This document shows, piece after piece, positions 45,427-63,409 of a stretch of DNA of 64,000 bases. Within the stretch, counting starts at the first letter, position 1, and each line of letters opens with the position of its first letter. The notes below the pieces were generated by a model. It was not told where the DNA came from. It ran no database searches and saw only the letters and a program-made list of their open reading frames with translations. The position numbers and the translations under genes were made by a program. Source of the DNA: an uncultured Methylomirabilota bacterium (GTDB lineage: Bacteria; Methylomirabilota; Methylomirabilia; Methylomirabilales; 2-02-FULL-66-22); NCBI GenBank assembly GCA_963845565.1, contig CAWJSJ010000001.1, positions 160,001 through 224,000 of the forward strand, written 5' to 3'.

Positions 45427-45548
45427 CCTTCTCTTGACGTAAGAGCCGTTACGAGAAGCGTGTCTATCCGGGAATGTCTCCGGTCACGCTATGCTTTGAC
45501 AACGATGTACCCCGCGCGGGCCAGGGGCGCATCACAGGGTGTCGGGCG

Positions 45549-46265
45549 TCACCGACCGCGCCGGCGGTTGCGGTGCCGGCGGGGCTCCGGGTCCGTGCCG
45601 CCGCGGACCAGGATCTTGGCGGCCACGTCGCGCCCGATGGCGTAGCGCGCGCCGCCCACCCGCACCAGCAGCGGCCCCCCGAAGGGCGCGACTTCCTCCA
45701 CCGACAGCTCCGCCCCTGGCAGGAGGCCCAGGCTCGCCAGATAGCGGAGCAGGGCCGCCTCCTCCTCGGTGATCTGCTCGATCCGCACCTGTGTACCGGC
45801 GGGAACGGTGTCCAGGGTTCGAGTGTACGCGGCGGCGATCCCGTCGCTCCCCGGAATCGGGCCGCCGTGTGGGCACGTCTCGGGATCGTTCAGAAGCGAC
45901 GTCAGCCGGGCCTCCGCCTCGGGGGTCAGCGCATGCTCCAGCCGCATGGCCTCGTCGTGGACGCGATCCCAGGGGAGACCCAGAACATCGGTGAGCAACC
46001 GCTCCGACAGCCGGTGCCGGCGGAGGATGGCGGCTGCCTGTCGCCGCCCCTCGTCGGACAGGGCCAGGCAATCGGATTTCGCCTCTAGCAGACCGCGGAC
46101 TCGGAGCTCCCGCAGGGCGGCCTCGGCGATGGGGGCGGGGACCCGGGCGAACGCCGTGACGTCCTGCGTGGTGGCGGCGCGGCCCTGGTCCACACTGCGC
46201 TGGAGGGCTTGCAGGCAGTCCTCCAGGATCTCATCGGTTACCGTCGGGCTCTGGTCGTCGGTCAT
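45549..46265 (-). CDS. DtxR/MntR-family protein with a C-terminal FeoA domain
   Basis: RRHRLSERLLTDVLG, HDEAMRLEHAL, CPHGGPIP, LRYLASLGLLPGAE...APFGGP. Confidence 0.88.
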   Translation of the reverse strand: MTDDQSPTVTDEILEDCLQALQRSVDQGRAATTQDVTAFARVPAPIAEAALRELRVRGLLEAKSDCLALSDEGRRQAAAILRRHRLSERLLTDVLGLPWDRVHDEAMRLEHALTPEAEARLTSLLNDPETCPHGGPIPGSDGIAAAYTRTLDTVPAGTQVRIEQITEEEAALLRYLASLGLLPGAELSVEEVAPFGGPLLVRVGGARYAIGRDVAAKILVRGGTDPEPRRHRNRRRGR

Positions 46266-46768
46266 GACGCGCTCCTCGGTCGTGCGTGGCCGGGGACGGC
46301 CCGGGACCCGCCGGTCGTCCGGCGTCCCTCCAGCCGGGCACAGTCGCGGCAGACGCCGTAGAGCTCGAGCCGCTGCTCGGTGACCGAAAAACCCTGGCTG
46401 TGCGCGACCTTGGCACCGAGCGCCCGCAGGGTGGCGTCCTGAAATTCTTGGATCTTCCCGCACCGGGTGCAGATCAGGTGATGGTGCGTCCAGTCGGCCG
46501 GGTTGGGATCGAACCGGGCATAGGTGTCCCCGAACTTCCGCTCGGTGGCCAGACCGGCCTGGCGGAGCAGCTTCAGCGTGCGGTACACCGTGACCAGTCC
46601 GATGGAGGGGTCCTGGGCCCGGATCTGATGGTACAGTTCCTCCGCGCTGATGTGGCGGCCGGCGGCGAAGAACGCGCGCACGATCTGCTCCCGCTGGCGG
46701 GTGCTCTTGAGACCGGCGCGTGTCAGGAAGTCGCTGAAGCTGCGGGTGCCGGAGTCGGAATCGGGCAT
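46262..46768 (-). CDS. fur: Ferric uptake regulator
   Basis: GLKSTRQRE, HISAEELY, TVYRTLKLL, HHHLICTRCG, GVCRDC. Confidence 0.9.
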   Translation of the reverse strand: MPDSDSGTRSFSDFLTRAGLKSTRQREQIVRAFFAAGRHISAEELYHQIRAQDPSIGLVTVYRTLKLLRQAGLATERKFGDTYARFDPNPADWTHHHLICTRCGKIQEFQDATLRALGAKVAHSQGFSVTEQRLELYGVCRDCARLEGRRTTGGSRAVPGHARPRSAS

Positions 46769-47499: not shown

Positions 47500-47916
47500 C
47501 TACTTACTGGCCACCAGGAGCTGGGCACACGCCTCGGCCACCTTGCTGTCAGATTTCTCTTCCCCAGGCATGGTCGCCCATCCCTGTTTCTCGACGTAAC
47601 CATCTCGCTGCCACGAATCGGTCCCTTGCAGGGCAACCAGCTTCTGGACTTTTCCAGGATCCCGCTGGAACTGGACGACACAAATCGGGGCCAAGCGCTT
47701 GGTGACGGCATCGTCCGCCCTCGTATCGGCCATCTTCTGAGCGGTCCCGCCCGTGACCCAGCCGCCCCAGGCGAATCCGACAATCATCGTGAGCACGACC
47801 GAGGCTATGCACGCCCAGAAGGTCATGGTCTTCGTCGGTTGGGTCTCCCGCCACCGTTGTCCCATGCTGAGCGTCTTCTGCTGTTCCATTCTCTTGTCTC
47901 CCTTGTCCTGATCCAT
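47500..47916 (-). CDS. Hypothetical membrane-anchored protein
   Basis: GAGGAGG RBS; TM segment then IVGFAWGGWVTGGTA, LAPICV, GWATMPG. Confidence 0.75.
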   Translation of the reverse strand: MDQDKGDKRMEQQKTLSMGQRWRETQPTKTMTFWACIASVVLTMIVGFAWGGWVTGGTAQKMADTRADDAVTKRLAPICVVQFQRDPGKVQKLVALQGTDSWQRDGYVEKQGWATMPGEEKSDSKVAEACAQLLVASK

Positions 47917-48007
47917 GGTGTCCTCCTCGGTGAGTGACGCGTTTCCATCCAGGCTGGCATCGGACTACTGAGGCCTCTTCGAGCACACCTTCCTTGTAAG
48001 GGGAACA

Positions 48008-48167
48008 TGCAAGGCCGAATCCACTCGGCCCTTCCATGGCCCCAAAAGGTCGCCGTCGCTTTGAATCGAGTAGTTGGGGGGTAAGCAGCCCTGGAGCCTC
48101 GGGAGGAGTGGCGGGGGAATCGCACGATATATCGGAGAATCTCAGGGAGAATCTCCGAAGGATCGGA
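48008..48167 (-). promoter_or_regulatory. Sigma54-type cassette copy A (UAS + IHF-like site + -24/-12)
   Basis: TGGATTCGGCCTTGCA at 48023-48008; tandem TCCGA-N4-TCG palindromes at 48167-48123. Confidence 0.8.
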
Positions 48168-48457
48168 TGGGGAGGGAGGATGAGCCGTCCCAGACCCACG
48201 CCCCCGGCGCTCGCCGCCGTGCGCGTTGGCGGGCGGGACGGAGCCGCTCTGGACGCCGTCGGAAGCCGCAAATTCATCCACGAACTTCGGGGACGGACAG
48301 GCGGCTAGCGTTCTGAGTTAGAGATTCGCTGACATGATCCAAAGCCCACAGGGTGCGCCAGAGACGCCGCGCCAGACCCGCCCTTCGGACGGGTACCCCC
48401 CAGCCGGCACCGCTGCGCTGCTCGGCCTCTCGCGTCCCCGCTGAGGGGTCCCGCGCC

Positions 48458-48605
48458 TCCGACCAATCGGAGATTCTCCGATATCCCGTACCTTTCCATC
48501 TCGCTCCTCCCTCGAGATTTCCAGACCGCGTCCCCGTAACCGACGGTATTAACAACGTCAAGAGGTCGTCGGGCTGTGCGCGGAGGAGATGGTTCTGGCT
48601 TTGCA
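48458..48605 (+). promoter_or_regulatory. Sigma54-type cassette copy B
   Basis: TCCGAccaaTCGGAgattcTCCGAtatcCCGTA at 48458-48490; TGGTTCTGGCTTTGCA at 48590-48605. Confidence 0.8.
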
Positions 48606-48817
48606 TGCCGTTTGTTTACCAGTGGGGCGGGGCCTTCCTGGCCATCTTTGCGTGACGCGTGTAATGGCATACGCACTCCCAGCCCCATCGCGTGAGTCGG
48701 GCGAAATAGTGTCTCGGCCGCGGCCCGCGCCACCGACACCACGCACCGGGTCCCAGGGGCGTGCCGCAGGACAGGCGGCGGTGTGCGCAAGACGGCGAGA
48801 AGCGAGGTACGGGGCAG

Positions 48818-50389
48818 ATGAGTGGTAGCCGACCAGCAGGCGTTCCTTCCGACGCGGCCCTTTCGCGGCCACGCGATGGAGAACCGTCAACCTGCAGGGT
48901 GACGCACTCGATCCTCACGGACCAGGACCCCGGGTTCGTGCCGCTGCTGGATCATCTTACGCGCTATCGCGGGATCGACTTCAGCGGCTATAAGCAGCCC
49001 AGCCTGATCCGCCGCCTGGCGAGCCGCATGCGCGTCGCTGGGGTCGGGGATTGTGTGGATTATCTCGCCTACCTCGACGAGCACCCGCTGGAGTACACCA
49101 CCCTCTTTGACAGCATCTTGATCAATGTCACGGGTTTTTTTCGGGACGAAGTGGCCTGGGGGTATATCCGCGAAACACTCCTCCCGAAGCTTCTCGCCAT
49201 CAAGTCGGCTGACGAGCCTGTCCGGGTGTGGAGCGCCGGCTGCGCCTCGGGCGAGGAGGTCTACACGCTGGCGATGCTCTTCGCGGAAGCCGTGGGGATG
49301 GAGGCGTTCTGCCATCGGGTCAAGATCTACGCCACCGATGTGGACGAGGAGGCCCTCTCACAAGCTCGTCAGGGGGCCTACAACGACGAGGACCTGGAAT
49401 CCATTCCGGCAACGTTACGAACGCGGTACTTCGAAACGGCCGGTTCCCGGCACGTCTTCCGGCCTGACCTGCGGCGGGCCATCGTCTTCGGACGCCAGGA
49501 CGTGTTGCGGGACGCCCCGATCTCTCGCGTGGACCTCCTCGTCTGTCGGAATACGCTGATGTACTTCGACTCCGAGGCGCAAGGGAGAATTCTGGCTCGT
49601 TTTCGCATGGCTCTCGTGGAGGCCGGCTATCTCTTCCTCGGGAAGGCGGAGCTCATCCCCGCGTACACCCACGTCTTCCACCCGGTGAATCTCAAGCACC
49701 ACATCTTCCAGAGGGTTGCCACGCTTGCAGAGACCGGAGTCCGGCCGGGCGCGGGTCTCACCAGTGCCGACGCCTCTGTGCGTCACGGACTCCCGGAAGC
49801 GCGTCGCGGCACTGTGGAGGAGCGAGCGCCAAGCGCAAAGTGGCTGCGCGCTGCCCCTACGGACCTGGAAACGCTCAACGCTGCCTTGCAGGTCACGAAC
49901 GAGGAGCTCGAAACGAGCAATGCGGAATTCGAGTCCACGAACGAGGAGCTGGGGAGCATGAATGAAGAGCTCCACTCCACCAATGAGGAGCTGGAGACTC
50001 TCAACACCGAATTGCACCGGCGGACCAACGAATTGGGTACGACGAATGCGATCCTGCAATCCATTTTGACTGGTGTGCGGGTCGGGGTGGCCGTGGTGGA
50101 CCACGACCTGACCATTCTCCTGTGGAACCACGGGGCCGAAGACCTGTGGGGTTTCAATGCCGACGAGGTGCGGGGGCGGTCCCTCTTGAGCGTCGACCTT
50201 GGCCTGCAGGCGGTGCAACAACAGATCGCCAGTCTTCTGGCGGGAGCCGCGCATCACGAGGAAATAGCGGTCGACGCGATGAATTGCCGTGGCAGGGCCG
50301 TCCGGTGTCGCATCACCTGTACCCCGTTCCTGGGACCGAGGGGGGATCGGGCTGGAGTCGTCCTGGTGATGGAGGGAAAAGCGAAATGA
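48818..50389 (+). CDS. CheR methyltransferase + Glu-rich coiled coil + PAS domain (start uncertain)
   Basis: RGIDFSGYK, INVTGFFRD, RVWSAGCASGEE, YATDVD, CRNTLMYF; (S/T)NEEL heptads; PAS WNHGAEDLWG. Confidence 0.9.
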   Translation: MSGSRPAGVPSDAALSRPRDGEPSTCRVTHSILTDQDPGFVPLLDHLTRYRGIDFSGYKQPSLIRRLASRMRVAGVGDCVDYLAYLDEHPLEYTTLFDSILINVTGFFRDEVAWGYIRETLLPKLLAIKSADEPVRVWSAGCASGEEVYTLAMLFAEAVGMEAFCHRVKIYATDVDEEALSQARQGAYNDEDLESIPATLRTRYFETAGSRHVFRPDLRRAIVFGRQDVLRDAPISRVDLLVCRNTLMYFDSEAQGRILARFRMALVEAGYLFLGKAELIPAYTHVFHPVNLKHHIFQRVATLAETGVRPGAGLTSADASVRHGLPEARRGTVEERAPSAKWLRAAPTDLETLNAALQVTNEELETSNAEFESTNEELGSMNEELHSTNEELETLNTELHRRTNELGTTNAILQSILTGVRVGVAVVDHDLTILLWNHGAEDLWGFNADEVRGRSLLSVDLGLQAVQQQIASLLAGAAHHEEIAVDAMNCRGRAVRCRITCTPFLGPRGDRAGVVLVMEGKAK

Positions 50390-52146
50390 GCAATCCGGTG
50401 TGCGATCGACAGGTGCGGGAGGGCCAACGGCGCCTTGATGAGCTCACCCACAGGGTTGGGCGGATCGCGGAACAGCAACCGCTGGTGGGCGAAACCATGA
50501 GGGAACTGTCGACGGCGCTCCAGGAACTGCGTGTGGCGGCCGACGAGCTCCAGCAGCAGAACGAGGAGCTGGCCGAGACCCGCGAACTCGTGGAGGAGGA
50601 GCGCCGGCGCTACCAGGAGCTGTTCGACGACGCCCCCGACGGTTATCTCGTGACCGACGCAAAAGGCACGATCCAGCAGGCGAACGAGGTCGCGGCAAGC
50701 CTGTTGGGCGTGCGCCGGGATTTGTTGCCCGGGAAGCCCCTTGTCGTGTTCGTCGCCAGCGAAGCGCACCGGGCTTTCGCGGCCTTTGTGGCGCGACTGC
50801 ACAACGGATATTCGGAACGCGTCGCGGAGTGGCAGACCACGGTTCAGCCACGGAGTGGTCCTCCCTTTCCCGTCACCCTGACCACGGGCCGGGTCCGCGA
50901 CCGCAAGGGGCGACTCGTCGGCCTGCGCTGGCTGCTGCGAGACAGCTCCGAGCGGGTGCGCACCGAAGTGGCCCGTCGCCAGTGGGAGGCGCAACTCCAG
51001 CATACCCAGCGGCTCGAAAGCCTCGGGGTCATGGCCGGGGGCATCGCACACGACTTCAACAACCTGCTCGGGGGCATCCTCCTTTCCACCGAGCTGGCCC
51101 TTCTCCACCTTCCCCAGGACGCGCCGGCCCGCGCCGACGTTGAGCAAGTGGTGACGACCGCGCATCGGGCTGCGGACCTCACAGGCCAGATGCTGGCCTA
51201 CTCGGGCAGGGGCACCTTCCGCGTCCAACCGATCCTGCTGCCCGCCCTCATCCGGGAAATGGAGCCGTTGCTTCGCGCCTCGCTGCCGAAAACCTGCACT
51301 CTCGATCTTCATCTGGGGGAGGCGGTCCCCGCGATCGAGGCGGATGCCACCCAACTGCGCCAGGTCGTCATGAACCTGGTCATCAACGCCGGCGAAGCCA
51401 TCGGCGACGCGGCCGGGGTCGTCACGGTGCGCGTCGGTGTACGCGAAGTCGACCGTGCGTACCTGGCGAAGGGCGTGCTCGGCAACGAGATACCCGAGGG
51501 ACCGTCCGTCTCCTTGGAAATAACAGACACCGGGTGCGGCATGCCCGAGGAGACGAAAGAAAAAATGTTCGAACCCTTCTTCACGACGAAGTTCGCCGGA
51601 CGCGGCCTCGGCCTCGCCGCGGTGCTGGGGATCATTCGTGGTCATCATGGCGCGATCCTGGTGATCTCGCAGCCTGGGCACGGAACCCAGATCGAGGCGA
51701 TCTTCCCTCCCACTGCTCGGCCCGCGGTTGCTCCCTCCGCCCCGACACCGGTTCCTCCCGCGTGGAGGGGCGAAGGGACGATCCTGGTGGTGGACGACGA
51801 CGCGCATATCCGTTCTGTTGCTGCGCTCGCCCTGGAGAAGACAGGCTTCACGGTGTTGACCGCGGCCGATGGACGGGAAGCGGTCGCAGTCTTCCGTGAA
51901 CATGCGGAGACCGTCCGCGCGGTCATCCTCGATCTGACGATGCCCCATATGGACGGCGCCGCGACCGCGCGCGCGCTTCGCCAGATCCGGCCAGACGTCC
52001 GAATCGTCCTGTCCAGCGGCTACACCAAGGAGGATGCCACCAGGCAGTTCACCGACCGGGACTTGATCGGCTTCCTCCAGAAGCCCTACGCGCTCAAGGA
52101 TCTGCTTGGCACGATCCGGACGACCCTGGAGTCCCCGGACCGCTAG
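50386..52146 (+). CDS. PAS-containing hybrid histidine kinase with C-terminal receiver
   Basis: ELQQQNEEL coiled coil, PAS (FDDAPDGY), H-box AHDFNNLL, NLVINA, DTGCGM, FEPFFTTK, GLGL, REC (ILVVDDD, LDLTMP, QKP); ATGA-coupled to CheR. Confidence 0.93.
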   Translation: MSNPVCDRQVREGQRRLDELTHRVGRIAEQQPLVGETMRELSTALQELRVAADELQQQNEELAETRELVEEERRRYQELFDDAPDGYLVTDAKGTIQQANEVAASLLGVRRDLLPGKPLVVFVASEAHRAFAAFVARLHNGYSERVAEWQTTVQPRSGPPFPVTLTTGRVRDRKGRLVGLRWLLRDSSERVRTEVARRQWEAQLQHTQRLESLGVMAGGIAHDFNNLLGGILLSTELALLHLPQDAPARADVEQVVTTAHRAADLTGQMLAYSGRGTFRVQPILLPALIREMEPLLRASLPKTCTLDLHLGEAVPAIEADATQLRQVVMNLVINAGEAIGDAAGVVTVRVGVREVDRAYLAKGVLGNEIPEGPSVSLEITDTGCGMPEETKEKMFEPFFTTKFAGRGLGLAAVLGIIRGHHGAILVISQPGHGTQIEAIFPPTARPAVAPSAPTPVPPAWRGEGTILVVDDDAHIRSVAALALEKTGFTVLTAADGREAVAVFREHAETVRAVILDLTMPHMDGAATARALRQIRPDVRIVLSSGYTKEDATRQFTDRDLIGFLQKPYALKDLLGTIRTTLESPDR

Positions 52147-52262
52147 GGTGCCCGAACCCGGCGATGCCGGACGCGACGATCAACACAGCAAGGGGACCCC
52201 GGCCACCGCGTCGCCAGTCGCGAGGAACGTTCGCGTCCGGGGAACGTGCATCGGTATCCCCA

Positions 52263-52412
52263 TCCGACCTGTCGGAGCCCCTCCGAGATATCGTGCGTTT
52301 CCCGTGACTTTCACAAATGAGACAACGCACGAACACCCCTCCCAACCCCATGAGTCGACAGGGCTGAAACGGTGTCCGGCCACCTCGAGCGTACGGTGGA
52401 TCTGGCCTTGCA
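52263..52412 (+). promoter_or_regulatory. Sigma54-type cassette copy C
   Basis: TCCGAcctgTCGGAgccccTCCGAgataTCGTG at 52263-52295; TGGATCTGGCCTTGCA at 52397-52412. Confidence 0.8.
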
Positions 52413-52555
52413 TATTCAGTCTGCTATAACGCCGCCCTGGCTCGGCACCTCACCCGAAAGGTGGACGCGAGGGTCGGTCTGGCGGCGGGCTCTGTCGCGC
52501 GAGACCGCGCGAGGGGCGAATGAAAGGCCGCCGCAGGCGGCGGAGGGGCAGGGCC

Positions 52556-52816
52556 ATGGCGCTTGACATGTTCGTGATGTGGGTTGTTGCGGGGCTGATT
52601 GCCGGCTACGTGGCCGGGCACGTCATGAAGGAGGGCGGGTACGGGCTGGCTGGGGACCTCATCCTCGGGGTTGTCGGCAGCATGGTGGGGGGCTGGCTCT
52701 TCTCTGTCTCGAGGATCTCGCCGGACGCGGGGCTGGCCGCGTTGACCATCATCGCGTTCATCGCGGGGATCGCCATGATCTTCGCTCAGCATAGGCTCTG
52801 GCCCATGCACGCCTGA
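52556..52816 (+). CDS. GlsB/YeaQ/YmgE family stress membrane protein
   Basis: WVVAGLIAGYVAG...GYGLAGDLILGVVGSMVGGWLF. Confidence 0.85.
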   Translation: MALDMFVMWVVAGLIAGYVAGHVMKEGGYGLAGDLILGVVGSMVGGWLFSVSRISPDAGLAALTIIAFIAGIAMIFAQHRLWPMHA

Positions 52817-52909
52817 AGACCGTGCCCCACATCTCAGTGGGCCGTGTCGCGACGGAGCGCGCACGGCGACCGGCCCTGGCTTGGGTGCCAGATGACTGAG
52901 GATCCGACA

Positions 52910-53215
52910 ATGCCGACCTACGAGTATCAATGCCGCTCGTGCGCGCAACGGTTTGAGGCCCGCCAAAGCATCATGGCCTCTCCGCGCAGGCGGTGCCCGC
53001 GCTGCGGGAAGAAGGTGGACCGCTTGATCAGCGCGGGCGCCGGGTTCCTGTTCAAGGGGTCGGGCTTCTACACGACTGACCATCGCTCGAAACCCTACCA
53101 GGAGGCGGCGAAGAAGGACCAGGAGGGAGGGAGCAAGGTTCGCCCCGCCGAGAATGCCCCCTCGAAAAGTGCCGCAGGTCCGAAGATGGACGCAGGCCAT
53201 GGGCAGCAGACGTGA
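52910..53215 (+). CDS. FmdB-family zinc-ribbon protein
   Basis: MPTYEYQCRSC...CPRCG...FKGSGFYTTD. Confidence 0.88.
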   Translation: MPTYEYQCRSCAQRFEARQSIMASPRRRCPRCGKKVDRLISAGAGFLFKGSGFYTTDHRSKPYQEAAKKDQEGGSKVRPAENAPSKSAAGPKMDAGHGQQT

Positions 53216-53549
53216 GACCGAACGCCGCGGTGGCGTCGGCGCCGCCATTCCGGCGACGGAGCCGCCCACGTCTCCGGTCCGAGCGGGGGCGGCTCCGTCG
53301 CCGTGCCGGTGGCCCACGCTGGCGATGGTGAGTCGGGCGATCGGTGACGTCGACGCCGCCTTGGCGGCGGATCCCCTCTTCCATCGCTGCCCGGACGGAC
53401 ACCAGGGGAGGATCGACGTGCGCTATTGGTACCTGCGGCCGCTGGAATTCTCCTGTCGCCACTGCGCCGAAGGCGGACGCGTCTGCGTGGTCGACCCACG
53501 GACCGTGGTCTGTCGCCACCGGACCGGACACCCCGTCCTGGAGGGATAG
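53199..53549 (+). CDS. Small Cys/His-rich hypothetical protein
   Basis: CPDGH...CRHC...C...CRH; fills the gap between fmdB-like and ftsH. Confidence 0.45.
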   Translation: MGSRRETERRGGVGAAIPATEPPTSPVRAGAAPSPCRWPTLAMVSRAIGDVDAALAADPLFHRCPDGHQGRIDVRYWYLRPLEFSCRHCAEGGRVCVVDPRTVVCRHRTGHPVLEG

Positions 53550-53555
53550 AGCGCC

Positions 53556-55436
53556 ATGGACAAAAAGCACATCGTGTCGGTGTGGTACTTCCTCGCCGCC
53601 TTTCTCCTCCTGATGGCGCTGCGGGACTACGTCTTTGCGCCGCACGTCGATACCCTCTCATACGGGGAGTTCAAGACCCTGGTGGAGAAGGGGAAGGTCA
53701 GCGAACTGGCGATCGGCGCGCAGGTCATCTCGGGGCGCCTGAAGGTGGATGGACTCGCGGGGCTCCTCCCACCGGCACGGGTCGAGGCGTTGGCCAAGGC
53801 CGGGACAGCCGATCAGCAGTTCGTGACGGTCCGGGTGGACGACCCCGCGCTCGTCCACGATCTGCAGCAAGCGAATGTCAACTTCCGGGGGGAGGTGACG
53901 AGCACCTGGCTCCCGACCTTGCTGGGCTGGCTGATCCCCATGGGGATCTTCTTCCTCATCTGGCGCTACGCCCTCAAGAAGATGGGGGGCGGTGGGGGCC
54001 TGGGTGGGCTCATGACGCTCGGAAAGAGCAAGGCCAAGGTCTATGTCCAGAAGGACACGGGGGTGACCTTCAACGACGTTGCCGGCATTGACGAGGCCAA
54101 GGCCGAGCTGGTCGAAGTCGTCGAGTTCCTGAAGACGCCGGAGCGCTTCCAGCGGCTGGGCGGGAAGATCCCGAAGGGGGTCCTCCTGGTCGGCGTCCCC
54201 GGGACGGGAAAGACGCTGCTGGCGAAGGCCGTGGCGGGCGAGGCCAAGGTGCCCTTCTTCAGCCTGAGCGGCTCGGACTTCGTCGAGATGTTCGTCGGGG
54301 TGGGCGCCGCGCGGGTCCGGGACCTGTTCGCCCAGGCGGTCACGCATGCGCCGAGCATCATCTTCATCGACGAGCTGGACGCCCTGGGCAAGGCCCGGGG
54401 CATGAACCCCATGGGGGGCCACGACGAGCGGGAGCAGACGCTGAACCAGCTCCTGGTGGAGATGGACGGCTTCGAGACCAACAAGGGCGTCATCATCATG
54501 GCGGCCACCAACCGGCCGGAGATCCTCGACCCGGCCCTGCTCCGGCCTGGCCGGTTTGACCGCCAGGTCCTGGTGGACCGGCCGGACCTCAAGGGGCGCG
54601 AGGCCATCCTCCGAGTCCACGCCAAGGGGGTGACGATTGGCCCGGAGGTCGATCTGGCCGCGATCGCCGCCAAGACGTTCGGCTTCGTCGGGGCGGATCT
54701 GGCGAACATCGTGAACGAGGCCGCCCTCCTCGCCGCCCGCCAAGGCAAGGAGGCGGTCGGGAAAGCTGATTTCGACGAGGCGATCGACCGGGTGGTCGCC
54801 GGGCTGAAGAAGACCCGGGTGATGAGCGTGAAAGAGCGGGAGATCGTGGCCACTCACGAGGCCGGACACGCGGTGGCAGCGGAGCTCCTGCCGGGGACCG
54901 ACCCGGTGGCGAAGGTCTCCATCGTCTCGCGGGGGATTGCCGCGTTGGGGTACACGCAGCAGCTCCCGACCGAGGATCGGTATCTCATGACCCGTTCGGA
55001 GCTGTTCAACCGGCTCTGCGTCCTCCTGGCCGGCCGGACCGCCGAGGAGATCGCCTTCAGCGATGTCTCGACCGGCGCCCAGAACGACCTCCAGCGGGCC
55101 ACCGACCTGGTGCGGCACATGGTGGCCCAGTACGGCATGAGCGAGAAGGTCGGCCTGATGACCTACGATGGAGGCGGACGGACGGCCCTCCTCCCGGGTC
55201 TGCCCCAGCCCCGTGAGCACAGTGAGGAGACGGCGCGACTTATCGATTCCGAGGCGAGCCGGATCCTGGTCGAGGCGCACGTAAAGGTCAGTGCCCTCCT
55301 CACGGAACAGTGGAGCGTCGTCGAACAACTCGCGCGCCGACTCCTAGAGAAGGAGGTGGTGGAGCGGGAGGAGCTGCAGACCTTGCTGGCCGGCGTGAAG
55401 CTCTCCGGGGACGGCGGCCGGGAGCGGGAGGCGTAA
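53556..55436 (+). CDS. ftsH: ATP-dependent zinc metalloprotease FtsH
   Basis: Two TM segments, [40 protein letters not shown]. Confidence 0.96.
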
Positions 55437-55518
55437 GGCAGGCGCCAAGAGTATCGGGGTGGGTCGGTGGTGGAAACGGAACGAGATCCGGACGGATGTC
55501 CGGAGAGGAGCAGGAACC

Positions 55519-55731
55519 ATGGCAACAGGCACGGTCAAGAAGCTGGTCCGGGATCGAGGTTTCGGGTTCGTTCAGGGGTCAGATGGCGTGGAGCTCTTCT
55601 TCCACCGGTCGGCAATCCTGGGAGAGGGATTCGACGCGCTGACGGAGGGACAGGCCGTCGAGTTCGATGTCGAGAAGGGAGACAAGGGACCGCGAGCGGC
55701 GCACATGAAAGTGAGCGCCCCCAGCATCTAG
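55519..55731 (+). CDS. csp: Cold-shock domain protein
   Basis: GTVK...RGFGFV (RNP1), LFFHRSAI (RNP2), KGPRA. Confidence 0.92.
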   Translation: MATGTVKKLVRDRGFGFVQGSDGVELFFHRSAILGEGFDALTEGQAVEFDVEKGDKGPRAAHMKVSAPSI

Positions 55732-55871
55732 ACGGGCGAGGTCTCGAAACTTCACGGGGTTTGCCCTCGGTCGTTCGGCTGTGCGAGGGGTCGGGGGCAA
55801 TACCCCGGTGGGGTTGGGTCGGAGCGTGACCATGGGAAAGGAAGACGGTCTTCCTCGAAAAGGAGGTTGCG

Positions 55872-56258
55872 ATGAAAGTCAAGGAACTCATGCGAACGTC
55901 TGTGGCGAAGGTCTCGCCCGTCGCGACCGTGAGGGAGACACTCTCGATGATGGATGACTCCGGTGTCAGCTCGCTGCCCGTTGAGGATGCGGAGGGTTGC
56001 CTCTTGGGTGTGGCGAGACTCGCCGTACTTTCCCGGGCGCTCGCCGATGGAAGCGTCGCGTCCTCCGCCGCTGTCGGGGATGGTCTGTCGTCCCATCTCG
56101 TCACGGCCACGCCGGAGATGGATGCGGCCAGAGTGGCCGAGATGATGCGCGACAGAGGGGTCGACGACATCATGGTCGTCGAGGGCAGGTACCTCGTTGG
56201 CGCGCTGTCCCTGGCCGAAGCCGGGAAGGCGGACACGGGTCTACGCCCCGCGTTGTGA
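55872..56258 (+). CDS. CBS-pair protein
   Basis: MKVKELM, SSLPV, LVGAL; AGGAGG RBS. Confidence 0.75.
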   Translation: MKVKELMRTSVAKVSPVATVRETLSMMDDSGVSSLPVEDAEGCLLGVARLAVLSRALADGSVASSAAVGDGLSSHLVTATPEMDAARVAEMMRDRGVDDIMVVEGRYLVGALSLAEAGKADTGLRPAL

Positions 56259-56324
56259 CCGTCTGCGGGTCAGTGAGCGACTCCAGTACTGCGGCGACGT
56301 TCGTGACCGACGAGGAGGCGCCGA

Positions 56325-57836
56325 ATGCAGCGGGGCAGCGGACGACATCAGCACGACCTGATGGCCATCGCGCGACGGGTGATGGTCGAGCGTGACTTGC
56401 TCCCGGACTTTTCGTCGGCCGTGATGGCGGAAGTCGCGCGGAGCCAGGCGGCGCCCGCCAACGGAGCGCCGAAGATGCGGGATCTGCGGGGGCTTCTCTG
56501 GTGCTCGATCGACAACGATGATTCGCGGGACCTCGATCAGCTCACCTTGGCAGAACCGATCGGCGGTGGGGTAGTACGGATCCTGGTGGCAGTCGCGGAC
56601 GTGGACGCAACGGTCGCGCAGGGCTCGGCGACGGACGGCCACGCGCGGCACAACACCACCTCGGTGTACACGGCCGCCGCGATGTTCCCCATGCTGCCCG
56701 AACCGCTATCGACTGATCTCACGTCCCTCGGCGAAGGCGAGGATCGGGTGGCGCTGGTGGTGGAGATGGCGGTGAACGCCGACGGAACCGTGGGCGCGCC
56801 AAACCTCTATCGCGCCGTGGTGAAGAATCGCGCCAAGCTGGCCTATGTTGCGGTCGCCGCGTGGCTCGACGCGACGGGACCGATCCCGAGTCGGGCGGCC
56901 ATCGTGCCGGGCATGGAGGCCCAGCTCCGGCTCCAGGACCAGGTCGCGCAACGGCTGCGGGAGGTGCGACACCACCACGGGGCGTTGAGCCTGGAAACCA
57001 TCCAGGCGCGGCCGGTGTTCCAGGGCGAGACACTGACTGACCTGGAGGTGGAGCATCCCAACCGGGCTCGGGCGCTGATCGAGGACTTCATGATCGCGGC
57101 GAACGGCGTGACGGCGCGCTACCTGGAGGCCCAGGGCTATCCATCGCTCCGCCGGGTCCTGCGCTCCCCGGAGCGGTGGGCGCGAATCGTCGAGCTGGCC
57201 GCCGGGTTGGGGACATCCCTGCCCCCGCAACCGGCCGCGGCTGCCCTGGACGCGTTCTTGACGGTGCGCCGCCAAGCCGATCCACTGCGGTTCCCCGACC
57301 TGTCGCTAGCCATCGTCAAGCTGATGGGGCGCGGGGAGTACGTCGTGGAGCTTCCCGGCCAGACGGCGCCCGGACACTTCGGGTTGGCCGTGCAAGCCTA
57401 CACCCATTCCACGGCACCCAACCGTCGCTTTCCTGATCTGATCGCTCAGCGGCTTCTGAAGGCGGCGCTGGCGCACAGCCCGGCCCCGTACGCAAACGCG
57501 GAGCTGCAGGAGCTGGCCCAGCACTGCACCGAGGCGGAGGACCGCGCGAACAAGGTCGAGCGCCAGGTGGGGAAATCGGCCGCCGCGCTCCTGCTGGAGC
57601 CTCGGATCGGAGAGCAGTTCGACGCGATCGTCACGGGGGCGTCGCAGAAGGGGACCTGGGTCCGCATCCTCCGGCCGCCGGTGGAAGGCAAGCTGGTGCA
57701 TGGCGCCGACGGGCTGGACGTCGGCGACCAGTTGCAGGTCACGCTGATTGGGACCGATGTCGAGCAGGGCTATATCGATTTCTCACGGGTGGGCGGCTCG
57801 CCGGCCATGAGCCTTCGGTCCCGGCCGACCCGTTGA
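56325..57836 (+). CDS. RNB-domain 3'-5' exoribonuclease (short RNase II/R family)
   Basis: SIDNDDSRDLDQ, VAVADV, LIEDFMIAAN, HFGLA, YTHSTAPNRRFPDL; C-terminal S1-like domain. Confidence 0.92.
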   Translation: MQRGSGRHQHDLMAIARRVMVERDLLPDFSSAVMAEVARSQAAPANGAPKMRDLRGLLWCSIDNDDSRDLDQLTLAEPIGGGVVRILVAVADVDATVAQGSATDGHARHNTTSVYTAAAMFPMLPEPLSTDLTSLGEGEDRVALVVEMAVNADGTVGAPNLYRAVVKNRAKLAYVAVAAWLDATGPIPSRAAIVPGMEAQLRLQDQVAQRLREVRHHHGALSLETIQARPVFQGETLTDLEVEHPNRARALIEDFMIAANGVTARYLEAQGYPSLRRVLRSPERWARIVELAAGLGTSLPPQPAAAALDAFLTVRRQADPLRFPDLSLAIVKLMGRGEYVVELPGQTAPGHFGLAVQAYTHSTAPNRRFPDLIAQRLLKAALAHSPAPYANAELQELAQHCTEAEDRANKVERQVGKSAAALLLEPRIGEQFDAIVTGASQKGTWVRILRPPVEGKLVHGADGLDVGDQLQVTLIGTDVEQGYIDFSRVGGSPAMSLRSRPTR

Positions 57837-58079
57837 ATGGATTGGGGACGCTTTTCTGACCGGCCGGAGGTTCGATTCCATCCCGACCGGACCGATGTCG
57901 CACCAGCGCGGAGCATTTCAACATCGAGTCCCGTCTCGGGAGATCCCGGCTCCAGCACTCTCGCTGTGTGTGCCTCCAACAGGTTACATCGAATGCTGGC
58001 GCCGGGCGGCTGCCAGGGACTGGGAATCCGAGGCTCGGGGTGGCCCTGGGACCGGCTGGTCCTGAACTGGTGGAACGCC

Positions 58080-58727
58080 GTGGAGAGCCTCCAGGGATTC
58101 GTCGAACAGTTCACATACCTCGGCGTGTTCGCCGTGCTCGTCCTGGGCAGCCTGGGGGTGCCTATCCCCGAGGAGATGGCCATCATCGCGGCCGCCGTCC
58201 TGAGCCACGAGGGGCTCGTCCGGTGGTGGCTGGCGCTTCTCATCTGTCTCCTGGGTGTGCTTTCCGGCGATATGGCGCTCTACTGGGTCGGTCGGCACTG
58301 GGGGGCCGACGTCCTCGCCTGGCGCGCGGTCCGGCTCGTGCTGACGCGCAAGCGGGAGCAGTGGCTGAAGGCGGCGTATCGGCGGCATGCCCTGAAGACC
58401 ATCGTCACGGCGCGGCATGTCATGGGACTCCGCGCCGCGGCTTTTCTGACGGCGGGCATGGCGCGCGTGCCGTTCTGGAAGTTCGTCGTGGCCGACGCGG
58501 GCACCGCGCTGGTCGGCGTCCCGCTTTTGTTTGGATTGGCCTTCTTCTTCACGGATCAGATCCAAGCCATCGTGGCCGACGTGCACCGGGTGGAGCGCTG
58601 GCTCGCGCTCGCCGGCCTCGTGGGGCTCATGGTGGTGCTGGGCGTCGGCGTGTGGCGATGGAAACGGCGTCTCGCGACGGAGAAGCTTGAGGGGGAACGG
58701 ACCGAGACGCCTGCAGTTCGCCCGTGA
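58080..58727 (+). CDS. DedA family membrane protein
   Basis: LGVPIPEE, GDMALYWVGR, ARHVMGLR, AGMARVPFWKF. Confidence 0.88.
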   Translation: MESLQGFVEQFTYLGVFAVLVLGSLGVPIPEEMAIIAAAVLSHEGLVRWWLALLICLLGVLSGDMALYWVGRHWGADVLAWRAVRLVLTRKREQWLKAAYRRHALKTIVTARHVMGLRAAAFLTAGMARVPFWKFVVADAGTALVGVPLLFGLAFFFTDQIQAIVADVHRVERWLALAGLVGLMVVLGVGVWRWKRRLATEKLEGERTETPAVRP

Positions 58728-58779
58728 CTCCCGCTTCCAGATGCCCCCGCCCGCGCGCTGCCGCTGGACACCGCGCCCC

Positions 58780-58928
58780 TCCGACCCCTCGGAGCCGCTC
58801 CGAAATCTCGGACGAGTCCCGTCTGCTGATCCGCGCGGATGTGGCCGTCGGATCCCATCCAACCACGCGATTAGTCCGGACGAATGCCCCTTCGGCCACC
58901 TTGGGAGCGGGGTGGATCTGGCCTTGCA
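58780..58928 (+). promoter_or_regulatory. Sigma54-type cassette copy D
   Basis: TCCGAccccTCGGAgccgcTCCGAaatcTCGGA at 58780-58812; TGGATCTGGCCTTGCA at 58913-58928. Confidence 0.82.
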
Positions 58929-58998
58929 TACTCTGTAGCCGAGGGGGCCGTAGGGAAGCCGGAACGCCGGCGCAGCCGCCGAAGAAGGCAGGAGGGCC

Positions 58999-59259
58999 AT
59001 GACTCTGGAACTGTTCGTGCTGTGGGCCATCGGGAGACTGCTGGCCGGCTGGCCGACCGGGTGGATCGTGAATGGCAGCGGGTACGGACTGATGGGCGAC
59101 ATGGCCCTCGGGCTCGTCGGTAGCCTCTTGGGGAGCTGGATTGTCCTGGCGCTTGGGGTGTCGGTGGGCGCGGCGCTCCTCGCGGTAGGTGGCGGTGCGG
59201 TCATCGGAGCGGTCCTGCTGATCGGCGCCCAGCGCGTGCTCGAGCACGTGCATGCTTAG
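58999..59259 (+). CDS. GlsB/YeaQ/YmgE family protein (paralog of 52556..52816)
   Basis: GYGLMGDMALGLVGSLLGSWI; similar N-terminus and HA* ending. Confidence 0.8.
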   Translation: MTLELFVLWAIGRLLAGWPTGWIVNGSGYGLMGDMALGLVGSLLGSWIVLALGVSVGAALLAVGGGAVIGAVLLIGAQRVLEHVHA

Positions 59260-59328
59260 GGACGTGAATGGTGGTGAGAGGAGCGAACGGTTCTCACGGG
59301 GCTGGTCGTTCGCTGTGGAGGAGAAGAG

Positions 59329-59472
59329 ATGACAAGATTAGTGAGTCGCATGCGGATCGGCGTCGTCCTTTGTTGCCTCGTGGCGATCTTCATGGCGGGG
59401 TGCGCCACCGCCCGCGGCGTTGGGCAGGACACGCAATCGCTCGGGCGCAGCATCGAGAAGAAAGCGCAATAG
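59329..59472 (+). CDS. Entericidin EcnA/B-like lipoprotein (below the ORF track cutoff)
   Basis: MTRLVSRMRIGVVLCCLVAIFMAGCATARGVGQDTQSLGRSIEKKAQ*; lipobox MAGC and GxGxD motif. Confidence 0.8.
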   Translation: MTRLVSRMRIGVVLCCLVAIFMAGCATARGVGQDTQSLGRSIEKKAQ

Positions 59473-59545
59473 CGGGGACGGCAAGATAGGCGCGGCGCTG
59501 GCCTGGGCCCATACACGGTCCGTCACTGGGCGGAAGGAGGTTGTC

Positions 59546-59698
59546 ATGGGAACGATTCTGCTCATCGTATTGGTGCTGTTCGTTGTCGGGGCGCTCCCGA
59601 CCTGGCGGCACAGTAGCACCTGGGGGTACGGCCCGAGTGGCGGGCTCGGTCTGGTCCTTCTGATCCTGTTGGTCCTGGTCCTGACCGGGCGCCTCTGA
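59546..59698 (+). CDS. DUF3309-like small membrane protein
   Basis: GALPTWRHSSTWGYGPSGGLGL; AGGAGG RBS. Confidence 0.85.
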   Translation: MGTILLIVLVLFVVGALPTWRHSSTWGYGPSGGLGLVLLILLVLVLTGRL

Positions 59699-59747
59699 CG
59701 AGGCCGCCCTCGTCACACCTTATGCCGCCTACACGAGGAGATCTGTC

Positions 59748-60038
59748 ATGCGAAGCTATGAAGCGTTTCTCTTGGGCGCGATCACGGGCGGCGTCGCCGT
59801 CTGGGTTTGGGGGAAGGAGATCACGGGCTACCTGCAGGAGCAGACCCGCGGGGTGCGCACGCAGGCCGCGGAGCGCATCCACGCGGTCGAAGAGAGCGCG
59901 GAGCAGCTGCTCGACCGCGGCGGGGATGCCCTGCGGCGCGCCGAGGAGGTTCTGCAGGATACCAAGGCACACGTCCGCGAGACGCTCCAGAAGGGGCAGG
60001 ACGCGATTCGTCCCGCCCCGACAACCGGCGGAGTATGA
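59748..60038 (+). CDS. YtxH-like membrane-anchored helical protein
   Basis: FLLGAITGG anchor followed by amphipathic helical repeats. Confidence 0.6.
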   Translation: MRSYEAFLLGAITGGVAVWVWGKEITGYLQEQTRGVRTQAAERIHAVEESAEQLLDRGGDALRRAEEVLQDTKAHVRETLQKGQDAIRPAPTTGGV

Positions 60039-60242
60039 CCAAACCGTCCACCAGGTGAGCTGAAGGTGGGCGCGCGGACATCGGTCCGGGGATCGGGCCG
60101 CTGCCCACGTCGTCTTACTGTGCGGTGCGTAAAGTAGGCGACACTCCGGCCGGGACCGCACAGTCCGGGGGGGCAGCGCGGCGGGCGGTGGAGCCATTGT
60201 TCTGTGCTGCGTAGTATGTCCGCTCATTCATAGAGGTCCAAA

Positions 60243-60446
60243 ATGATGCGACACTTTCTGGCTGTGATTGTCTTTGGACTCGTCATCGCGTTCGGCGCGG
60301 CCGCGTGCGACAAGGGCCCGATGCAAAAGACGGGCGAGAAGATCGACCGCGCCACGGGTCAGGACAAGGTGATCGGAACGGGTCCCCTCGAGCAGGCGGG
60401 CCGGAACGTTGACCGGGCTGTGAAAGACCTCAAGAAGCTCGACTGA
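60243..60446 (+). CDS. Small lipoprotein
   Basis: Lipobox AAAC; two internal repeats GPMQKTGEKIDRA and GPLEQAGRNVDRA. Confidence 0.7.
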   Translation: MMRHFLAVIVFGLVIAFGAAACDKGPMQKTGEKIDRATGQDKVIGTGPLEQAGRNVDRAVKDLKKLD

Positions 60447-60565
60447 AGCGTCAGGGTTGTCGGTGGGGTCAAGGTGATTTTCGCACAGCGCGTGTTCGAG
60501 TGCGCGCAAGTCTGCGGACGCACGCCGCATCGGCGGGACGCGACCGCCCCACAAGGAGGAAGATC

Positions 60566-61285
60566 ATGAAACGGTACACGATGTGGAACACAGTCCGGAC
60601 TGCTATGACCGCCCTCGCGCTGGGCGGACTGATCCTCGGCCTGGCGCCGTCGGCCTGGGCCGACGATGCCCAGGATGCGACCCAACTCGTCGACAAAGCG
60701 CGTCTGACGTTTGAAGCCTTCATTGGGGACAAAGACATGGGGCCGGCCCTCCGGTCGCTCGTCAAGGGAGCCAAGGGTGTGCTCGTCTATCCCCAGATCC
60801 TCCGCGGCGCCTTCATCGTCGGGGCCTCGGGTGGCAACGGCGTGTTCCTGGCCAAGGATGACAAGGCAGACGTCTGGAGTGGTCCGGCCTTCTACACCAT
60901 CGGACAGGGCAGCTTCGGGCTCCAGGCCGGGGGCGATGCCTCGGAGGTCGTGCTCGTCGCTCTGACCGAGCGGGGCGTGACGGCCATGCTGGCCAACAGC
61001 GCCAAGCTCGGCGCCAACGCCAGCGTGGCGGCGGGACCAGTCGGGGCGGGGGCGGAAGCCTCCACGGCCAACATCAGCGCCGACATCCTCGCCTACTCGC
61101 GCGCCAAGGGTCTGTACGCGGGGATCTCGCTGGATGGCGCGGTGGTGGCGACCCGGGACGCCCTGAACCATGCCTATTACGGCAAGGAAGTCACCCCTAC
61201 CGACATCCTCGTCAAGCGGACGGTGAAAAACCCGCAGGCCGCTAGCTTGATCGACGCCGTGGCCAAAGTCGCCCGCGGGAAATAG
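60566..61285 (+). CDS. SYLF/YSC84 lipid-binding domain protein, exported
   Basis: AKGVLVYP, GAFIVGASGGNG, WSGPAF, SFGLQAG, YSRAKGLYAGISLDG. Confidence 0.88.
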   Translation: MKRYTMWNTVRTAMTALALGGLILGLAPSAWADDAQDATQLVDKARLTFEAFIGDKDMGPALRSLVKGAKGVLVYPQILRGAFIVGASGGNGVFLAKDDKADVWSGPAFYTIGQGSFGLQAGGDASEVVLVALTERGVTAMLANSAKLGANASVAAGPVGAGAEASTANISADILAYSRAKGLYAGISLDGAVVATRDALNHAYYGKEVTPTDILVKRTVKNPQAASLIDAVAKVARGK

Positions 61286-61315
61286 GCCGTTGTCAAAGAA
61301 TAAATGGAGACATCG

Positions 61316-61699
61316 ATGCTGTATGTGACCGACACCCCCAAGGATGTGGCAACCGCCACGCGGGATCTGGAAGAAGCGGTGAAGCGCAACAAGTTCGGCG
61401 TCCTGCATGTGCACGACCTCCAGAAAACGCTCAAGGAGAAGGGCGTGGACTTTCCGAACGCCTGTCGGATCCTGGAGGTGTGCAACCCGCAGCGGGCCGT
61501 CCAGGTGCTGACGGGGAACATGGGAATGAACATGGCCCTGCCTTGCCGGATCTCTGTCTATCAGGACGGGGGGAAGACCAAGATCGGCATGATTCGGCCG
61601 ACCGCCCTCCTGGCGCTCTTCCCCGGGGCCGCCGCCCTCAAAGCGGTCGCGGAGGACGTGGAGCGGGAGACCATACAGATGATTGACGAGGCGCGCTAA
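61316..61699 (+). CDS. DUF302 domain protein
   Basis: FGVLHVHDLQKTLKEKG, ILEVCNP, ALPCRISVY, IRPT. Confidence 0.85.
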   Translation: MLYVTDTPKDVATATRDLEEAVKRNKFGVLHVHDLQKTLKEKGVDFPNACRILEVCNPQRAVQVLTGNMGMNMALPCRISVYQDGGKTKIGMIRPTALLALFPGAAALKAVAEDVERETIQMIDEAR

Positions 61700-61715
61700 A
61701 GGAGGAGAAGAAGAG

Positions 61716-61934
61716 ATGAACGCAATCAAGCTCGCGGCAATCGCGTTGATTGTGGTCGGCATCCTGGGGTTGGCGTATGGCAGTTTCAGTTACACCAAGG
61801 AGACCCACGGGGTCAAGCTGGGTTCGCTCGAGCTGTCGGTGAAGGACAAGCAGACGGTCAACGTCCCCGTCTGGGCTGGCGTGGGGGCGATAGTGGCCGG
61901 CGGCGTCCTGCTGTTTTGGCGCAAGCAGAGCTAG
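61716..61934 (+). CDS. Small two-TM membrane protein
   Basis: LIVVGILGLAYGSFSYTKETH...PVWAGVGAIVAGGVLL; AGGAGG RBS. Confidence 0.75.
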   Translation: MNAIKLAAIALIVVGILGLAYGSFSYTKETHGVKLGSLELSVKDKQTVNVPVWAGVGAIVAGGVLLFWRKQS

Positions 61935-62100
61935 GCCCTGCGTCAGAGCCGCCTGACGACCCCTCGTGCAGCGGACGCGTGTGCTGCCGGGGCGTACAGG
62001 ACCGATTCGAGCCTCCAAAGTGCTCGATCTCAAGTTGCCCACCCGGGAAGCGCGCACGAACGAACTCGCGCCTCGGACACCCCGATGATCGCGGCCCCTC

Positions 62101-62250
62101 TCCGACTGATCGGAGCGCATCCGATATTTCGTACCGCTCCCACCGGTCTCTCCGCGCAAGGGTCGCCGCAGCATCATGAGGAAACTCGCGATTCGAAAGT
62201 GGCGGGACCTCGTTTGGCAACCTGAGAAGCGGAGTGGATCTGGCTTTGCA
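62101..62250 (+). promoter_or_regulatory. Sigma54-type cassette copy E
   Basis: TCCGActgaTCGGAgcgcaTCCGAtattTCGTA at 62101-62133; TGGATCTGGCTTTGCA at 62235-62250. Confidence 0.8.
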
Positions 62251-62338: not shown

Positions 62339-63409
62339 GTGAACTTCCAACAACGAAGTGCGGAAGGACGAAAGGATCGACGTGCACCAACCGCGACACT
62401 CCGGTCTGCCAAGTCCATGTGGAAACGGATCGTGTCCCGCTATGAGAAGCCGTCCCTGAGCCGCAGCGTGTGGCAGGCGGCGAACACGTTCGTCTCCTAC
62501 GGGGTTCTGTGGTATCTGATGCAGCGAAGCGTGGCGATTTCCCCCTGGATCACGCTGGCCCTGGCGCTCGTTGCCGCGGGTTTTCTGGTGCGCCTCTTTA
62601 TCATCTTTCATGACTGCGGCCACGGGTCGTTTTTCCAGTCACGGAAGGCCAACGACACTCTGGGCGTGATCACCGGGATCCTGACCTTCACACCCTACTA
62701 CCAGTGGCGGCACAAACATGCCATTCACCACGCCACCTCCAGCGACCTGGACCGGCGCGGCACCGGCGATGTCTGGACCATGACGGTGCGAGAGTACCTC
62801 GATGCCTCTGGCTGGCGGCGTTTTGCCTATCGGCTAACACGCAACCCTCTGGTGTTGTTCGGCATTGCCCCGCTCCTCTTGCTGGTGTTCGGACAGCGGT
62901 TCCCGTGGCGAAAGGCAGACCGACGAGAGCGCACCAACGTCCTGTGGACGAATCTGGCAATCCTCGGGATGGCCGCGCTGCTCACCTGGTGGATGGGCCT
63001 CAAGGCGTACCTGATGATCCAATTGACGGTCCTGATGATCGCAGGTTCCGTCGGGGTGTGGTTGTTCTACGTACAGCATCAGTTCGAGACCACCTATTGG
63101 GAGCGGCGCGGTCAATGGGACTTCGTGACGGCGGCCATCCGGGGGAGTTCCTTTTACAAGCTTCCCAGGGTGTTGCAATGGTTCACGGGCAACATCGGAT
63201 TCCATCACGTCCATCACCTGAGCCCGGGGATCCCCAACTATAATCTGGAGAAGTGCCACAAAGCGGATCCGCTCTTTCAGGACGTCGAGCATGTCACGCT
63301 ACTCTCCAGCCTGAGATCTCTTACCTACCGCCTGTGGGATGAACAGCGACAGAAATGGGTCGGCTACGGTCACGTGAGAGCGCTGCGCCGCGGATGGCCA
63401 ACCGGCTGA
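62339..63409 (+). CDS. Membrane fatty acid desaturase
   Basis: His boxes HDCGH, HAIHH, HHVHH; FYVQHQF. Start set at the GTG after AAGGAG because the track's start overlaps the promoter. Confidence 0.92.
   Translation: MNFQQRSAEGRKDRRAPTATLRSAKSMWKRIVSRYEKPSLSRSVWQAANTFVSYGVLWYLMQRSVAISPWITLALALVAAGFLVRLFIIFHDCGHGSFFQSRKANDTLGVITGILTFTPYYQWRHKHAIHHATSSDLDRRGTGDVWTMTVREYLDASGWRRFAYRLTRNPLVLFGIAPLLLLVFGQRFPWRKADRRERTNVLWTNLAILGMAALLTWWMGLKAYLMIQLTVLMIAGSVGVWLFYVQHQFETTYWERRGQWDFVTAAIRGSSFYKLPRVLQWFTGNIGFHHVHHLSPGIPNYNLEKCHKADPLFQDVEHVTLLSSLRSLTYRLWDEQRQKWVGYGHVRALRRGWPTG

Follow-up and report, generated by a model that had tools for sequence, protein, structure and literature searches.

The question raised by this locus is why several intergenic regions of an uncultured Methylomirabilota bacterium carry one and the same cassette, a tandem palindrome followed about 100 bp further on by a variant of the sigma-54 (RpoN) -24/-12 element, and which regulator would read it. 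The cassettes lie in a stretch of 64,000 nucleotides (hereafter the window; C1:160001-224000 of the genome G000, 5.36 Mb in 6 contigs), for which an earlier reading of the letters, the original prediction, had proposed an enhancer-dependent stress regulon under one activator encoded elsewhere. We consider it probable that the five cassettes belong to a set of 25 copies of a three-box unit, likely a sigma-54 promoter switched on by an activator of the FhlA family, likely serving a general-stress gene set, and built by promoter duplication. The sigma-54 and activator reading was supported with two amendments, as the cassettes appeared to be copied from one ancestor and a site for integration host factor (IHF) appeared to be part of the unit; activator binding and the stress function are conclusions drawn from sequence.

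Cassette 1 lies on the minus strand, with two palindromes (48123..48167; 48167-48154 and 48136-48123), an IHF-consensus box at 48064..48076 and a predicted -24/-12 element of the TGGATT variant at 48008..48023, for which a transcription start near 47997 is predicted. On the plus strand, pattern matches located the tandem palindromes of cassettes 2 to 5, the predicted activator sites, at 48458..48490, 52263..52295, 58780..58812 and 62101..62133, and their predicted -24/-12 elements at 48590..48605, 52397..52412, 58913..58928 and 62235..62250, with IHF-consensus matches at 48537..48549, 52343..52355, 58860..58872 and 62181..62193, respectively. All five -24/-12 boxes were found where they had been placed, and TGG-N8-TTGCW gave 11 matches against 2.2 expected. 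The shared tandem palindrome was exact in cassettes 2 to 5 but not in cassette 1, where the inner spacer is 17 nt and not 5 nt because of a 12-bp near-tandem duplication (the orthologues in the congeners G009 and G014 have 5 nt); it gave eight strand-matches at up to 3 mismatches in the window, against a mean of 0.11 in 100 shuffles. The claimed distances of 100, 100, 102, 101 and 102 bp between palindrome and promoter are position differences and correspond to 99, 99, 101, 100 and 101 bases between the boxes.

The sequence between the boxes had been described as otherwise divergent, which did not hold. Aligning the copies revealed a third conserved box, 52 to 54 nt before the TGG of the -24 element, and the rest was 48-50% identical among 22 aligned copies, against 29% in shuffled sequence. 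The third box fits the E. coli IHF consensus YAANNNNTTGATW as given in passages of PMC5963220, with a mean of 1.9 mismatches over nine informative positions versus 5.9 at other offsets (24 cassettes). Genes for IHF alpha- and beta-like proteins were present as best hits, slightly under the NCBIfam cut-offs. The genome also harbored the machinery expected for such promoters, namely a single rpoN (with a canonical RpoN box) and some 31 full-length sigma-54-activator domains. Among assembled RNA contigs, an X4 contig started at 52441, 18 nt past the predicted start of cassette 3, while X8 contigs also spanned the palindromes; X5 contigs began at 58966-58967, one of them with a loose end.

The number five proved to be an effect of the window. 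A position weight matrix seeded with four window copies converged on 22 sites, and a profile model then built from 22 copies gave 25 hits at E<=1e-6 in the whole genome, 24 full and one partial. Twenty-three of them (including the partial one) were distributed on C1 between 208.0 and 331.0 kb, a 123-kb region, and two on C2. Every full cassette (24/24) was intergenic and in sense orientation to the next called gene, with gene calls from our own hexamer model. In 67 cassettes of eight genomes, the GG and GC of GG-N10-GC were 100% conserved at invariant spacing (partly by construction of the scan), and the gap from palindrome to TGG was 99-101 bp in 63, where 96-104 bp was allowed.

The activator, which had been predicted to lie outside the window, has a strong candidate at C1:288347-290479, about 64 kb beyond it and inside the 123-kb region. 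This gene encodes an FhlA-family protein with PAS, GAF, AAA and helix-turn-helix (HTH) domains; a PF00158 domain (E 5e-69), PF02954, a GAYTGA loop of the GAFTGA type and a C-terminal HTH identify it as a bacterial enhancer-binding protein (bEBP). A cassette starts 13 bp behind its stop codon. Remnants of the gene were found at other cassettes: an internally deleted copy precedes the one at C1:250376 (94% over 143 bp), and the last codons precede cassette 2 of the window (87% over 71 bp including the palindromes), within a deletion scar at 48184..48444 (plus strand) in which 48421-48444 encode the last seven residues and the stop. Between the equivalents of cassettes 1 and 2 (matching 48183 and 48420), where the window has 236 bp, G009 has about 1.78 kb that include an activator copy; from this copy and the tail remnant it follows that the activator gene once stood inside the window. 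The activator-tail motif occurred before 7 of 21 cassettes, against a shuffle mean of 0.66 and maximum of 4.

Some features of the candidate and its surroundings are recorded here. The gene ends a run of cheB-cheR-PAS, hybrid kinase, kaiC, kaiB, kaiB and PAS-protein genes (L006:4606-14479, C1:280606-290479). The additional PAS region at its N terminus is similar to the beginning of the adjacent kinase and is lacking in the 521-aa form of congeners, which suggests a recent fusion. A search of the PDB with the N-terminal half gave no match, and a protein atlas search yielded only GAF candidates, all scoring under 0.9. A repeated, coiled-coil-like peptide unit of about 24 residues makes up the open reading frames just before the decayed copy (L004:9017-9987, C1:249017-249987).

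Activator and cassettes co-occurred in the genus. Twenty same-genus genomes were compared, many of them incomplete; seven have an orthologue of the activator at 74% or more, and all seven harbor a cassette directly behind a copy of the gene. By the profile model eight of the 20 carry cassettes, in 1 to 18 copies (1 to 25 with G000 included), and 12 have neither orthologue nor cassette, including the 7-contig G020. The 8 copies of the single-contig G014 are spread over four regions, so that clustering in one island is not required. The strict cassette pattern was found in none of 20 other genomes of the order, and a profile search of 150 genomes of the phylum (19 candidates scored per genome) gave one strong hit, G002; three weak hits (E 2-6e-4) were not counted. 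A loose pattern scan of the collection gave one full cassette (L052) in 112 loci, taken from about 450 estimated stretches, and gives no taxonomic range. That locus (L052/L186) is a 3-kb contig of a Thermoleophilia metagenome-assembled genome, with the cassette behind a decayed activator tail, possibly through misbinning or transfer.

Across 54 activator 3' flanks, the type of recognition helix tracked the type of palindrome: (K/N)PTTLESR stood with TCCGA-N4-TCGGA, (H/N)PSTLRAR with CCWCC-type and xRTTL with GTC/GCC-type palindromes. Among the 28 of the 54 rows with a good promoter and palindrome, arginine at helix position 2 went with an outer G in 9/9 loci, and other residues in 3/19; the arginine helix is found on several distinct branches of the tree. 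The xRTTL helix is also that of E. coli FhlA, with arginine where the candidate has proline, and GTC-type palindromes (TGTC-N-CGACA) in the hycA-hypA region, presumably the sites bound by FhlA, where the cassette palindrome has TCC. A six-frame scan of G000 found the helix type of the candidate at three places only, the intact gene, the decayed copy and a broken paralogue on C5 with a different palindrome. At the last locus (L184, C5:645781-647176), the broken gene is followed by a palindrome pair of 15-bp units, an IHF box, a -24/-12 element and an ABM-family gene, i.e., the same module in single copy.

This ABM-family target was searched in 201 genomes of each of two further phyla, that of G167 (which holds a Geobacteraceae record and which we take to be Desulfobacterota) and that of G168 (with an Acidobacteria record), and was matched in 13 and 11 of them, respectively. 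A sigma-54-like box scoring at least 12 was present in 30 of 34 loci (both phyla and four Methylomirabilota paralogue loci), and in 18 of these an FhlA-family gene lay immediately upstream. For the best palindrome core, the distance from its end to the TGG was 96-102 bp in 18 of the 30 and 115-121 bp, corresponding to the distal site, in another 7; the two ranges together make up 14 of 70 scanned positions. In the G167 phylum, a variant palindrome pair occurred in 27 of 401 genomes, in up to 8 copies (reversed control 0). Its gap to the promoter was 96-98 bp in 14/14 loci, as well as in 16 of 22 matches of three islands, the other six being reverse-strand matches of the same sites.

Behind these sister cassettes stood genes for ABM, CsbD, DUF3309, DUF3096, YtxH, OmpA, LapA, FtsH and a PLD-family enzyme (of 17 proteins selected, 14 had a Pfam hit), along with homologues of the BON, LTXXQ, DUF6600, RNase II and window membrane proteins of G000. 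In an unrooted tree of 27 rows, made with no formal one-clade test, the two activator clades did not group as sisters. In five other genomes, the palindrome-pair pattern of the G000 genus matched exactly at one place and weakly at two, while its control also matched in one genome; a tblastn search of plasmids with the ABM protein gave no match. Tentatively, one gene set (CsbD, DUF3309, DUF3096, YtxH, BON, OmpA, FtsH, ABM) may have been put under sigma-54 by repeated copying of the promoter behind an activator gene, by different activator clades each with its own palindrome, following a readable helix-to-DNA code.

The genes behind the cassettes in the window are varied. Cassette 1 is followed by a 138-aa putative membrane protein without Pfam family (47500..47916, minus strand), homologues of which also stand behind cassettes in congeners and in a second phylum; the others precede genes on the plus strand. 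The predicted targets of cassette 2 are a CheR-PAS protein and a PAS-HATPase-receiver hybrid kinase (48899..52146). Cassette 3 precedes a co-oriented cluster encoding GlsB-like, zinc-ribbon, hypothetical, FtsH, cold-shock-domain, CBS, RNase II-family and DedA/VTT proteins (52556..58727), and cassette 4 one encoding GlsB-like, entericidin-family and DUF3309 proteins, two small proteins without Pfam family, Ysc84, DUF302 and a small membrane protein (58999..61934). Both GlsB-like proteins score below the curated cut-off, the first against PF04226. A fatty-acid desaturase (62417..63409) is the predicted target of cassette 5. Over the genome, a Pfam scan of 64 selected proteins near cassettes (17 without a family) found CsbD, five BON, five DUF3309 (some weak), YtxH, DUF948, entericidin, dodecin, PRC-barrel and LTXXQ, as well as OmpA, Usp, ABM, FtsH, RNase II, DedA and a desaturase. 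General-stress marker families (csbD, entericidin, BON/OsmY) were thus present among the predicted targets; csbD and ecnAB are listed in the experimentally defined EcfG general-stress regulon of Sphingopyxis, according to passages of PMC7083833. Extra copies of dnaK and groES-groEL lie inside the region, downstream of cassettes (L003:3913-5832 and L008:10909-12897), and groES-groEL also stands behind a cassette in five congeners.

GAF domains recognise particular ligands, and the same sigma-54 promoters of the same activator could answer one specific cue (an oxygen or redox shift, entry into dormancy, or a timer signal derived from Kai and CheBR) rather than general stress. Consistent with such a cue are the position of the G000 activator behind cheB-cheR, kinase, kai and PAS genes and the ABM-family protein as the most constant first target across phyla. 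We nevertheless regard this alternative as unlikely, since most congeners have neither the kai context nor the PAS fusion (their activator being the GAF-AAA-HTH form), and since the target families overlap the general-stress regulons defined by experiment in the passages of PMC7083833.

A dispersed selfish element, such as a miniature inverted-repeat transposable element (MITE) or a repetitive extragenic palindrome (REP), or neutral debris of recent duplications, would likewise leave many copies in one genome. Homologous spacers, sharp unit edges and the range of copy numbers between congeners would suit it. The uniform conservation of a mobile repeat was looked for and not seen: pairwise identity among the 22 aligned copies was 76% and 81% in the two palindromes, 81% in the promoter and 61% in the IHF box, compared with the lower values of the spacers, and fell to 29% beyond the unit edges. 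The ranking was the same in 12 reciprocal-best pairs with congeners (palindromes 85-87%, promoter 91%, spacers 72%). The 24 copies showed neither a terminal inverted repeat above 7 nt nor a target duplication above 6 nt; no RNA structure was found in them (mean z +0.33), and an Rfam search of the cassette gave no hit. A role-free repeat is very improbable given that all copies stand in sense ahead of genes, that the boxes and their spacing have been retained as the spacers diverged, and that comparable geometry recurs in other phyla with other sequences.

These values are better accounted for by descent of the cassettes from one ancestor through duplication than by independent evolution, with subsequent selection on boxes and spacing, as we infer from the alignments. 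The unit of about 190 bp was likely copied from the 3' flank of the activator gene, in many cases along with adjacent genes. Duplication of the whole unit appears to be active in one congener (G005, C63; L151, L154, L156), where three near-identical full activator copies and a fourth, damaged one each have palindromes behind them. In G000, four cassettes share extra sequence just past the -12 element (L004:5363-5560, L005:3221-3420, L006:15048-15250, L008:9179-9380) and form a sub-family of more recent duplications or carry a conserved leader element.

With many bEBPs in the genome, another of the roughly 31 activators could bind the palindromes and the neighbouring activator gene be a passenger, which is hard to reconcile with the near-perfect co-occurrence of activator and cassettes in the genus, with palindromes immediately following the stop codon in each of three phyla and with letters that change with the candidate's helix; we give this reading very little credence. 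Equally slight is the chance that the TGGATC...TTGCA box is read by an extracytoplasmic-function (ECF) or other sigma-70 factor, for which the non-canonical -24 element and the seven ECF sigma factors of the genome would speak, against the invariant GG-N10-GC spacing and the TGGCA or TGGTA found at the same place in most homologous modules of other phyla.

Several observations nonetheless weigh against sigma-54 promoters under one FhlA-family stress activator. The -24 element is dominated by TGGATC, with A after TGG in 94% of the 67 copies, and so departs from the canonical TGGCAC hexamer; TGGCAC or TGGCAT accounts for 11 of 55 intergenic matches in other parts of the genome, and the cassette promoters could therefore be weak. 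This variant is limited to the genus, and TGGATC could descend from a founder sequence or have been selected as a weak promoter. A group-2 sigma factor (RpoS-like, under the cut-off) and the ECF sigma factors could serve general stress; a claim that the genome lacks other stress sigma factors was rejected on their account, and the cassette regulon need not be the sole stress system. Some targets (CheR/kinase, desaturase, efflux adaptor) fall outside the classic stress repertoire, and no gene was called in the 1.3 kb that follow the cassette just downstream of the activator. One congener (G012) has one cassette with no activator orthologue found, although it is preceded by a stretch resembling a decayed tail and lies 1.3 kb from the end of its contig; in G005, the activator copy L030 has palindromes without a promoter and L025 has none downstream. 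Finally, the co-variation test of helix and palindrome left out 26 of the 54 rows, and as the rows are related, its p=3e-5 overstates the significance.

If the sigma-54 promoters are nevertheless read by this activator, its GAF domain (here also PAS) would receive the signal and its dimers would bind the two palindromes, 19 bp apart. IHF would bend the DNA between palindromes and promoter, the AAA+ ring with its GAYTGA loop would open the sigma-54 closed complex, and transcription would start about 12 nt behind the GC. The regulon would have grown by duplication of the unit from the activator's 3' flank.

Classical sigma-54 promoters with upstream activating sequences and IHF (NifA at nifH, NtrC at glnHp2; passages of PMC7057263) are alike in their upstream palindromes, in the IHF site between these and the -24/-12 element and in an AAA+ activator of GAFTGA type. 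The cassettes differ in being one unit present 25 times, with spacing fixed to within 1 bp and TGGATC as -24 element; in Desulfovibrio most bEBP regulons comprise one to four operons (passages of PMC4641369). Compared with E. coli FhlA/HyfR, the candidate is 41% identical to FhlA over 500 aa including GAF, AAA and HTH, with a GAYTGA-type loop and a related helix, but it is no FhlA equivalog (373 bits against the NCBIfam cut-off of 830) and its targets are not hydrogenase or formate genes. The passages of PMC3162934 merely list an FhlA-like class. Putative mobile promoters (passages of PMC3575422) resemble the cassettes as homologous upstream regions before unrelated genes of one genome; they are mostly pairs at 80% identity or more and of unknown source, whereas the cassettes are 25 older copies with their source beside the cognate regulator gene. 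Most cassette spacers lie below the threshold used for them (at least 80% over at least 50 nt), with 73-80% in the best pairs.

Alternative sigma-70 factors (RpoS, SigB, EcfG-PhyR-NepR) are known to direct general stress responses. CsbD and entericidin are target families shared between such regulons and the cassette set, according to passages of PMC7083833. Further shared families are presumably BON/OsmY, YtxH and the GlsB-like proteins. The cassettes would use sigma-54 and a one-component ATPase activator in place of an alternative sigma-70, and the set is accessory (8/20 congeners) and clustered. If true, a sigma-54 general stress response under one ATPase activator would be a further design. 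No description of the operator or regulon was found in the literature, searched by listings and abstract beginnings in a collection with few subscription papers. Regulator, operator and targets would all be readable from the sequences of organisms that resist cultivation; the locus would record the building of a regulon, with a promoter copied from the regulator's own flank and scars left behind; and the helix-palindrome pairs would give predicted operators for a large uncharacterised activator family, testable in E. coli.

As for the limits of the 123-kb region, two definitions as an island were rejected, one by G+C (10-kb bins of 62-70% inside and 64-69% outside) and one by a tRNA border (no tRNA in that part of C1). 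An outlying C2 cassette starts about 380 bp behind tRNA-Leu(CAA) at L010:8285-8909 (C2:978285-978908), upstream of ABM, membrane-protein and Usp-like paralogues, and may mark an integration site. Just outside the first cassette, a FeoB-like transporter with DtxR-like and Fur-like regulators (labels from sequence) at 43405-46768 of the window marks where the region begins on the left.

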